A stretch of 11,769 nucleotides of DNA from a virus (Duplodnaviria > Heunggongvirae > Uroviricota > Caudoviricetes), in IMG/VR virus record IMGVR_UViG_2693429700_000006; one strand, written 5' to 3'. The notes beneath the pieces are model-generated. The model saw nothing but the letters and a program-made list of their open reading frames with translations, was not told the DNA's origin and ran no database searches. The position numbers and the translations under genes were made by a program. Positions 7,909 through 8,596 of this stretch are shown piece by piece (the stretch's first letter is position 1; every line of letters begins with the position of its first letter).

Positions 7909-8253
7909 ATGACTCAAAACTATGAACTGGTTGTGAAAGGAACCCGCAATTACGAGGATAAAGTTGCGGTAACTGTAGCATTACAGGAGAAAGAACGCTT
8001 AGACGGTGAAATTTTTGACCTGGACATCTCGATAGACCGTGTTGCAGGTGCCGCACTGGAGTTTTATGAGGCAGCAGCCAGGAGGTGCATCAGACAGGTC
8101 TTCCTGGATGTCGCTGCCGGGTTATGTGAAGGCGATGAGCAGTCGCCGGAAAAGCGCCCCGTAATTTTAGAGGCGCAGAATGTATGGATAACCTACAAAG
8201 GAAAGCTGCCGGGAAGAATTACTGGTTCCCTGAAGATTCCGCCGAAATGGTAG
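7909..8253 (+). CDS. Hypothetical protein inserted between holin and endolysin, 114 aa (possibly DUF1327/YdfR-like)
   Basis: GGGGAGAG RBS 7 nt upstream of the ATG. Occupies the holin-endolysin position that YdfR holds in the Qin prophage as recalled. The 3' end overlaps a convergent gene by 35 bp. Confidence 0.55.
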   Translation: MTQNYELVVKGTRNYEDKVAVTVALQEKERLDGEIFDLDISIDRVAGAALEFYEAAARRCIRQVFLDVAAGLCEGDEQSPEKRPVILEAQNVWITYKGKLPGRITGSLKIPPKW

Positions 8254-8491
8254 TTTTGTCAGCATAATTTTCTTCCAGCAATGCCGCCAGCCACTTGAAA
8301 GAATTTTGTTGTTCCTGGGACCATTTGGGGTTGCGTGATTCAAAATGAATGGATGCCAGCGTTGGCAGTATTTGCTCCCTGGGAATTGATAAGGCCAGAT
8401 GTGAAAATGCAACAGTGAGGGCATTTACATCATCCCGAAGCCTGGAAATGCAGTCGAGCAACTCCTGTAGAGAAATGGTGTTATTGTCCAT
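8219..8491 (-). CDS. Hypothetical 90-aa protein encoded antisense to the lysis operon (moron)
   Basis: Strong AAGAGGA RBS 7 nt upstream of the ATG at 8489..8491. No family recognised. Confidence 0.5.
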   Translation of the reverse strand: MDNNTISLQELLDCISRLRDDVNALTVAFSHLALSIPREQILPTLASIHFESRNPKWSQEQQNSFKWLAALLEENYADKTTISAESSGNQ

Positions 8492-8596
8492 AAATAATCC
8501 TCTTGATTGTCTTTACCTTTTCCCCGCCTGATTCAACAGGCCGGGACAGATAAACATATCCAGGGTTCAGAAACCGATAAATCCTGATAAATATCC

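Follow-up and report, generated by a model that had tools for sequence, protein, structure and literature searches.

A conserved antisense gene convergent with ydfR in the lysis cassette of a defective Escherichia coli prophage

The window analysed here, an 11,769-nucleotide (nt) stretch of DNA filed in IMG/VR as the Caudoviricetes virus IMGVR_UViG_2693429700_000006, shares 99.9% identity with a stretch of the E. coli Z1323CEC0019 chromosome that RefSeq annotates as a defective lambdoid prophage. Between its S21-type pinholin gene, essD, and its rrrQ-type signal-arrest-release (SAR) endolysin gene lie two open reading frames (ORFs) that converge on each other: ydfR (or A), read with the lysis operon, and a 90-codon gene read against it, which we call B. 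The original prediction, made from the letters alone, took the pair for a two-gene moron island; this description fits the minus-strand gene, but the 114-amino-acid (aa) gene proved to be ydfR, a regular member of the cassette. The locus is a real and tidy prophage add-on, widespread, already annotated and not exceptional. What we add is a description of how the antisense unit is built, evidence that its convergent pairing with YdfR-like tails is conserved in several genera and operon positions, and evidence that selection has kept it in prophage remnants. The features on which the argument turns are the following.

7909–8253, plus strand: ydfR (A), 114-aa form; DUF1327 core at residues 1–78 (beta-beta-beta-alpha) and tail at residues 79–114 ending KGKLPGRITGSLKIPPKW (PF07041, phrog_406, AlphaFold2 (AF2) model)
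8219–8491, minus strand: gene B, 90 aa, phrog_2411 family, isoelectric point 4.8, four predicted helices; RefSeq WP_001360051, 'hypothetical protein'
8219–8253, both strands: convergent overlap of 35 nt, comprising ydfR codons I104–W114 plus stop and B codons 79/80–90 plus stop
8498–8504, minus strand: Shine-Dalgarno (SD) sequence of B, AAGAGGA, 6 nt upstream of the ATG (8491–8489), read from the sequence
8521–8546, minus strand: leader stem-loop of the putative B transcript, core GCCUG-UUGAAU-CAGGC with an outer 4-bp stem (fold compared with shuffles)
8553–8581, minus strand: putative B promoter, −35-like TTTATC (8581–8576), 17-nt spacer and −10-like TATGTT (8558–8553)
8150–8176, minus strand: terminator-like hairpin for B, GCGCCUC, 9-nt loop and GGGGCGC (8176–8154), then UUUU (8153–8150), within ydfR codons 81–90 (fold)

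The layout was as predicted: both ORFs begin with ATG and their 3′ ends overlap convergently. Both have good ribosome-binding sites, that of ydfR (GGGGAGAG, 7894–7901) lying within the last holin codons, 7–9 nt before its ATG, and that of B being kept as A[AG]GAGGA or ATGAGGA across 15 upstream variants. The hairpin foreseen upstream of the antisense gene (GCCTG-attcaa-CAGGC, 8526–8541) is present and folds better than shuffles. The endolysin SD is indeed weak, with no GGAG-like sequence before the ATG at 8597.

Family, selection and distribution of gene B

B matched phrog_2411 over its full length (positions 1–90 of 90; E = 4.4e-53), a Citrobacter homologue also matched this family, and RefSeq annotates both ydfR and B in the 99.9% identical E. 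coli locus. HMMER and profile searches brought out relatives at 30–55% identity in Citrobacter, Atlantibacter, Yersinia, Serratia, Brenneria and Sodalis, with the family core ELLDxISxLRxxVNxLxxAFSYLAFS...E...T...L.[FY]ES.N. Across 82 related loci B was intact in 79, with a ratio of non-synonymous to synonymous substitution rates (dN/dS) of 0.27, and among its 25 distinct alleles the variable sites were biased towards the third codon position (11, 13 and 31 at first, second and third positions). The AF2 model shows four helices with disordered ends (predicted local distance difference test score, pLDDT, 71), and the protein is acidic and soluble, its maximum 19-residue Kyte–Doolittle hydropathy being 0.95. 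To judge from this conservation, B is a genuine gene; it represents a new, uncharacterised moron family of Enterobacterales.

That the minus-strand ORF is no functional gene but arose by chance, or merely shadows a longer YdfR coding sequence, we find scarcely credible. The plus frame sharing its wobble positions with B had a dN/dS of 0.26, no other frame having a ratio so close to that of B, and YdfR forms of 176–183 aa do exist; however, this frame carries stop codons near 8268 and 8346 and the C-terminus of the long forms derives from unrelated DNA, which together effectively refute a shadow of long YdfR. B moreover has an ATG with a strong SD, homologues down to 30% identity that include non-phage loci, and a confident helical model.

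B had no match in Pfam, NCBIfam, PADLOC or the PDB sequences (searched with the single sequence and a 26-member profile), nor in Foldseek comparisons with PDB and BFVD. The PADLOC-DB hidden Markov models gave no match at E up to 1 for either YdfR or B, leaving the defence-related role once suggested for the antisense gene without support. Neither protein resembles known toxins or antitoxins, neither turned out to be a known structural or lysis accessory protein when such homology was looked for, and both lack the transmembrane segment, signal peptide or lipobox sought as marks of a lysis accessory. Rfam had no family matching at the A/B locus, and a literature search on the B accessions, phrog_2411 and DUF1327 found nothing on B. 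A candidate likeness of B to the Mip/LUZ24 gp4 anti-silencing protein (NF041858; PDB 6yse) was rejected, since it scored 12.1 bits against a 50-bit cut-off (E = 0.11), gave E = 0.87 with the PDB sequence and was lost with the family profile.

The two genes differ widely in distribution. The ydfR core is present in 80% of complete E. coli genomes (4346 of 5426, at 8599 places) and in 101 phage records (mEp460, BP-4795, YYZ-2008 and many Stx1a and Stx2c phages), always at the holin/lysozyme junction. In E. coli, ydfR did not come in with B as one island. The B module (8254–8578), on the other hand, was found in 1221 of these genomes at 1436 places, that is, at ~17% of ydfR places, the remaining ~83% being without B. 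Three phage records carry it (Chlobot, vB_EcoS-783R2 and phiSTEC1575-Stx2k). B thus appears rarer among the ydfR-carrying phage records (3 of 101) than at genomic ydfR places, a difference that we leave uninterpreted, given how strongly Stx phages dominate the phage collection. Collinear cassettes without B are seen in mEp460 and locus L098, and in L095 a phrog_2572 gene stands in its place. The right junction of the B insertion falls at ~8553–8579, and the GC content of B and its upstream region is 41–45% vs 50–52% in the flanks.

In every phage operon with the family, the B-type gene is reversed relative to the host operon. In two Citrobacter species it lies immediately upstream of the holin; in Atlantibacter it separates tail genes M and L, in Yersinia it follows tail gene I, and Serratia-like prophages have it between the cI operon and N. 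Sodalis and a related metagenomic group carry B alone, in ordinary chromosomal neighbourhoods, and a metagenome scan yielded almost only E. coli-type copies. By its absence from homologous cassettes, its constant reversal and its own SD, −10-like box, leader hairpin and terminator-like hairpin, B behaves as a moron, as far as sequence can tell. In the Serratia-like prophages (L102–L105, ~3600–5400) the homologue sits between cI-operon accessory genes and the N antiterminator gene, close to a RelA_SpoT-domain or a P63C-domain gene in the early-left operon.

The phrog_2572 gene is an antisense gene of 86–88 aa (L095, 2979–3245, minus strand) in the slot equivalent to window 8254–8596. It occurs in 314 of the 5426 E. 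coli genomes, behind the 176-aa YdfR, and overlaps the ydfR 3′ end by 53 nt. Its product was considered as a distant B homologue and rejected (hhalign probability 0.1%).

We found that purifying selection has kept B intact in places where the lysis genes around it are decayed. The copies next to iha in strain SMS-3-5 (L085, 2446–2718) and on plasmid pRM11911 (L086, 2460–2729, beside AIDA-type autotransporter genes) are intact with dN/dS of 0.15–0.20, although each is flanked by decayed but recognisable fragments of ydfR and of the rrrQ start. Their proportion of synonymous differences from the window copy (pS) is ~0.6, so that synonymous divergence is near saturation. B is intact too in the defective prophage of the window and in the Rac remnant of BL21. 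Of the indirect arguments that B is expressed and of use in the bacterial cell, and not in lysis alone, this persistence under selection is the strongest; B is probably made from repressed or defective prophages and would be useful to host or prophage independently of lysis. With its presence in more than one-fifth of E. coli genomes, including BL21, its intactness where the prophage has decayed and, in some strains, its position adjoining virulence loci (iha, AIDA-type autotransporters), B is marked, on comparative grounds, as a domesticated prophage gene with a selectable function. The SMS-3-5 and pRM11911 loci are also flanked by insertion sequence (IS) remnants, and some 73 E. coli records hold B copies in the 60–80% identity band.

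ydfR and the convergent overlap

The ydfR product scored 136.6 bits against PF07041 (E = 3.4e-40, residues 1–100; the gathering score for membership is 25 bits) and matched phrog_406 over positions 1–114 of 114. The same-strand order S21-type holin, ydfR, lysozyme is common to the window, mEp460, Chlobot, the BL21 Rac remnant and L095–L099; ydfR is a standard co-oriented gene of S21/rrrQ-type lysis cassettes, not a moron. S and R are adjacent in phage 21 and DLP12, and ydfR is therefore an accessory gene, though a fixed feature of the rrrQ-type cassette.

YdfR proteins fall into length classes of 104, 114, 116, 176 and 183 aa that differ only after about residue 84. The 104-aa class is the K-12 and mEp460 type and the 114-aa class that of the window, the 116-aa class has no antisense gene downstream, and the 176- and 183-aa classes have an extra helical C-terminal domain. 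The segment EKRPxILEAQNVWITYKGKLPGRITGSLKxPP is common to the 114-, 116- and 176-aa forms, and the window protein ends two codons past it. Long forms include P0117, P0136 and that of L095 (2501–3031). Database entries with holin and DUF1327 in one ORF (PF04971 plus PF07041, 173–187 aa; P0096, P0102 and P0138) and a 196-aa YdfR with an internally duplicated core (P0151) were also seen; these may be frameshift or annotation variants.

In the AF2 model of YdfR, a beta-beta-beta-alpha N-domain spans residues 5–73 at pLDDT 65–80. The mean pLDDT of 58, with the tail below 50, makes the model too weak for fold inference, and Foldseek against PDB returned only noise and no fold match. Like B, YdfR is acidic and soluble (maximum 19-residue Kyte–Doolittle hydropathy 0.86). 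In a 2026 study (PMC13232886), K-12 YdfR bound the catalytic N-terminal domain of RNase E in two-hybrid and pull-down assays; residues 1–72 sufficed for binding, as confirmed by co-purification, RNA co-purified with the protein, and its overproduction caused no toxicity. The RNase E-interacting residues 1–72 are the part conserved in the window protein. By homology, window YdfR is most likely a soluble, cytoplasmic, RNA-associated, RNase E-binding protein and not a lysis effector. The gene is among the most widespread uncharacterised E. coli prophage genes, often present in several copies, and its link to RNase E is only recent.

The essQ-ydfR-rrrQ-rzpQ cassette of the K-12 Qin prophage has the same order of pinholin, ydfR, SAR-type lysozyme and spanin, and the same DUF1327 core. 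In contrast to the window protein, YdfR of the K-12/mEp460 type has 103–104 aa, diverges after about residue 84 and ends ...SITGC, with the lysozyme gene directly next and no antisense gene; the window protein, of the 114-aa form, keeps the full KITGSLKxPP tail, and gene B is present.

The overlap of ydfR and B measured exactly 35 nt in every E. coli-type copy examined, from over 60 metagenome loci and from 68 copies in viruses or genomes. Beyond E. coli, B is met by the following partner ORFs, which run with the host operon and converge on B.

Citrobacter freundii: 63 aa, overlap 14 nt, tail ...EKITGSLRAPIKL
C. meridianamericanus: 238 aa, overlap 14 nt, tail ...EKITGSLRVPMKL
Yersinia: 71 aa, overlap 47 nt, tail ...EKITGSLFAPLSAHPSE
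Atlantibacter: 71 aa, overlap 7 nt, tail ...QIFGDLKKPPSY
Serratia-like: 59–60 aa, overlap 20 nt, no clear tail motif

The Citrobacter, Yersinia and Atlantibacter tails, KITGSL[KRF]xP or IFGDLKKPP, resemble the YdfR ending ...GRITGSLKIPPKW, and in BLASTP the last 42 residues of the Citrobacter ORF aligned with YdfR residues 79–114 (E = 0.005). The ITGSL codons differ only synonymously (ACT/ACC/ACG, GGT/GGA, TCC/TCG/TCT, CTG/TTA), which indicates constraint at the protein level. Convergent overlap with B thus recurs in at least four prophage positions, the partner usually having a KITGSLxxP tail like that of YdfR. These shared tails point to a mobile unit made up of a YdfR-like 3′ part, with the B terminator embedded in it, and B with its promoter and leader, which appears to have moved as a cassette into several phage operons. 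The 35-nt overlap is no accident of this locus, the 3′ end and putative terminator of B being embedded in a YdfR-like tail.

Such recurrence raises the possibility that A and B form a functional two-gene module, in which B would bind or counteract the KITGSLxxP tail (as regulator and anti-regulator, or toxin and antidote) or the convergent transcripts would act as a switch, with lysogenic B and lytic A expression made mutually exclusive by RNA duplex formation and polymerase collision. The convergent arrangement is found at four or five unrelated prophage positions in four genera although B identity is only 34–55%, and the protein-level constraint on ITGSL is in keeping with such a role. In Atlantibacter and Yersinia, moreover, the operon-strand terminator lies beyond the B start, so that a transcript of A would run antisense across the whole of B. 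Yet ydfR and B are not mutually dependent, each being found alone: the tail is kept without B in the 116-aa and 176/183-aa YdfR forms and at most ydfR loci, and B is under purifying selection where A has decayed and has no partner in the Sodalis-type chromosomes. Since K-12 YdfR is also non-toxic on overproduction and neither protein is like known toxins or antitoxins, we consider a functional module possible but rather unlikely. Its most elaborate version appears very unlikely to us. Here A/B would be a mobile convergent two-gene switch of temperate Enterobacterales phages, in which B is made in lysogeny and its transcript, ending within A, silences leaky A; on induction the antiterminated operon transcript overrides B and delivers A, an RNase E-binding RNA protein whose conserved KITGSLxxP tail is the target of the B protein, and prophage state is thereby coupled to host RNA decay. 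Should B prove to act on RNA decay or on YdfR, this would be more than a routine locus.

Transcription signals and the proposed organisation

The −10-like TATGTT of the putative B promoter sits in a 13-mer, CCCTGGATATGTT (8565–8553, minus strand), that has counterparts in C. freundii (CCCTGGTTATGAT), Atlantibacter (CCCTGGTTATGTT), the SMS-3-5 remnant and the phrog_2572 module (CCCCGGATATGTT) and was not found at junctions without an antisense gene. Where the box recurs, a leader stem-loop starts 7–11 nt downstream of it, varying in sequence but kept in structure. In the window this stem-loop consists of GCCTG (8526–8530), the loop ATTCAA and CAGGC (8537–8541), extendable to 8521–8546. Its fold beat 199 of 200 shuffles when taken as plus strand (z = −4.4) and all 200 as a minus-strand leader (z = −3.2), and each of the 15 upstream variants retains the stem, through G-U or extended pairs. 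Analogous hairpins precede the gene in Citrobacter, Atlantibacter, Yersinia and the Sodalis group and also the unrelated phrog_2572 gene, where an 8-bp hairpin is nearly identical to that upstream of Citrobacter B.

At the other end, the terminator-like hairpin is invariant or nearly so in the 82 loci and kept in the SMS-3-5 remnant, and its Citrobacter homologue is stronger, with a 10-bp stem and a T-tract, and was flagged by a terminator scan. With no U-tract on the plus strand, this hairpin would not stop late transcription.

That B is a gene, its family, its presence/absence polymorphism, the conserved architecture and the purifying selection are shown by the sequence comparisons, whereas the promoter, the transcript ends, expression in lysogens and the functions of both proteins are inferred. 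ydfR would be read from the late transcript by way of an SD that lies within the final holin codons, and B from a weak sigma-70-like promoter with the −10 TATGTT at 8558–8553, back to back with the endolysin start. Transcription would begin near 8546, giving an mRNA with the stem-loop (8546–8521), the strong SD and the 90-codon ORF, and end at the one-directional hairpin and U-tract at 8176–8150 within ydfR; the product is modelled as a cytosolic protein, small and acidic, of four helices. Were transcription to begin near 8546, the hairpin would stand at the extreme 5′ end of the mRNA, an arrangement known to stabilise E. coli mRNAs. We lean, with modest confidence, towards this organisation as a whole, in which ydfR is an ordinary late gene and B an autonomous antisense moron.

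Several observations weigh against it. A promoter scan upstream of B found no site of at least 9/12, and the proposed promoter agrees with consensus at 7/12, with a −35 not conserved outside E. coli. The window terminator hairpin was not flagged by the scan because of its 9-nt loop and only four U residues; lying within coding sequence, it may be conserved owing to YdfR coding constraints, and a version of it occurs in mEp460, which is without B. Pairwise similarity of the partner ORFs beyond the tail is weak (E = 0.005–0.025, or none), and the partner ORF of the Serratia-like prophages lacks the tail motif. Within E. coli each of the two frames has 5 synonymous and 9 non-synonymous variable sites in the overlap, and hence neither clearly dominates; a constraint imposed solely by the ydfR frame, which we had considered, is not borne out by these counts or by the tail alleles ITDSL and ITNSL, many of which are probably in decaying prophages. 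The RNase E link comes from one paper, on the 103-aa K-12 form with its different tail, and no family, defence-system or fold match supports a function for B, whether in defence, lysogenic conversion or regulation.

The original prediction had also proposed that antisense transcription could dampen endolysin expression. Spelled out, the main role of the antisense unit would be cis-regulation of the lysis operon: transcription from the B promoter would collide or pair with the late transcript, lower endolysin and spanin relative to holin and so tune lysis. The putative −35/−10 elements (8581–8553) do lie within 16–44 nt of the rrrQ ATG, B converges on late transcription, its predicted transcript would be complementary to ~400 nt of late mRNA between ydfR and rrrQ, and the slot can also hold another antisense gene, unrelated but equally oriented. 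Nonetheless, cassettes that have no antisense gene (mEp460, L098) show the same weak SD and the same 20 nt ahead of the rrrQ ATG; the weak SD is intrinsic to rrrQ-type cassettes. The A/B pair is also found in operons for tail and early genes, which makes its role not specific to lysis, and the B protein is under purifying selection, for which a purely cis-acting RNA has no need. Lysis still works in the plaque-forming phage Chlobot, which has the same arrangement, and in lambda the Q-modified polymerase is generally resistant to such obstacles. We judge this mechanism unlikely.

Morons in the sense of Hendrix and Juhala are autonomous promoter-gene-terminator units inserted between phage genes; lambda examples are bor, antisense just after Rz, and lom, both of which encode envelope proteins with known phenotypes. 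A bor homologue is antisense after Rz in cassettes related to that of the window. B resembles the lambdoid morons in its presence or absence at a junction, its reversal in the late operon, its own SD, promoter-like box and terminator-like hairpin, its slightly lower GC content and its retention in defective prophages. Unlike them, it encodes a predicted cytosolic helical protein and not an envelope protein, and its terminator and last 11 codons lie within a neighbour gene whose tail travels with it.

Convergent pairs with overlapping 3′ ends are also familiar from lambda OOP RNA, which overlaps the cII 3′ end, and from the type I toxin–antitoxin pairs txpA/RatA and bsrG/SR4. The predicted B transcript would similarly pair with ~100 nt of the ydfR 3′ end (8150–8253). 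However, a type I system combines a small hydrophobic toxin with a non-coding antisense RNA, whereas A and B both code for soluble proteins conserved as such, neither of them a small hydrophobic toxin (maximum Kyte–Doolittle value below 1). The phrog_2572 gene (88 aa) resembles B in layout, with the same slot and orientation, a ydfR 3′ overlap, the same −10-like box and an upstream hairpin, but its protein is unrelated and it is found in fewer genomes (314 vs 1221). With promoter, leader and terminator coordinates defined, the A/B architecture offers a handle on how antisense morons insulate themselves from, or talk to, their host operons.

Surrounding prophage genes

Other features of the cassette are as follows.

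7628–7653, plus strand: intrinsic-terminator-like hairpin, GGCCAC-GTCAA-GTGGCC then TTTTTATTTC, at the DNA methyltransferase/holin junction (scan)
7689–7904, plus strand: essD, S21-type pinholin, 71 aa, dual-start motif MKSM (PF04971, E = 7.9e-34; RefSeq 'phage lysis protein EssD')
8597–9130, plus strand: rrrQ-type SAR endolysin, 177 aa, weak SD (PF00959, phrog_7; RefSeq rrrQ)
9127–9594, plus strand: Rz i-spanin (PF03245; RefSeq coordinates)
9347–9553, plus strand: Rz1 o-spanin lipoprotein inside Rz, +1 frame (lipobox read from the sequence)

The endolysin is a phage lysozyme with an N-terminal SAR-like segment. Rz1 is unannotated in the near-identical RefSeq copy, in which a 50-aa ORF after Rz (9582–9734) is annotated as hypothetical.

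Outside the lysis genes the window (1–6500 and 10553–11769) is a defective mosaic, with CPS-53-like yfdR/Q/P and e14-like ymfK with ymfT and ymfL. RefSeq lists yfdR/Q/P, the LexA-like repressor gene ymfK (4033–4707, minus strand) with ymfT and ymfL, a truncated helix-turn-helix gene (5938–6276) and a DNA methyltransferase gene, and then, in the lysis part, essD, a 'YdfR family protein', the minus-strand 'hypothetical protein', rrrQ lysozyme, spanin and DUF1441. By this annotation the prophage is without Q, replication and morphogenesis genes; without Q and morphogenesis genes, the late operon of the window copy is probably never driven as in a live phage. DUF1441 is followed by a terminase large-subunit gene that IS1203 truncates, in the RefSeq copy, just past the window end. 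The terminator at 7628–7653 (GGCCACGTCAAGTGGCC then TTTTTATTTC) is a strong one, and a hairpin with T-tract much like it ends the A/B cassette on the operon strand in Yersinia and Atlantibacter (L116, 2361–2345, minus strand; L100, 3873–3856, minus strand).

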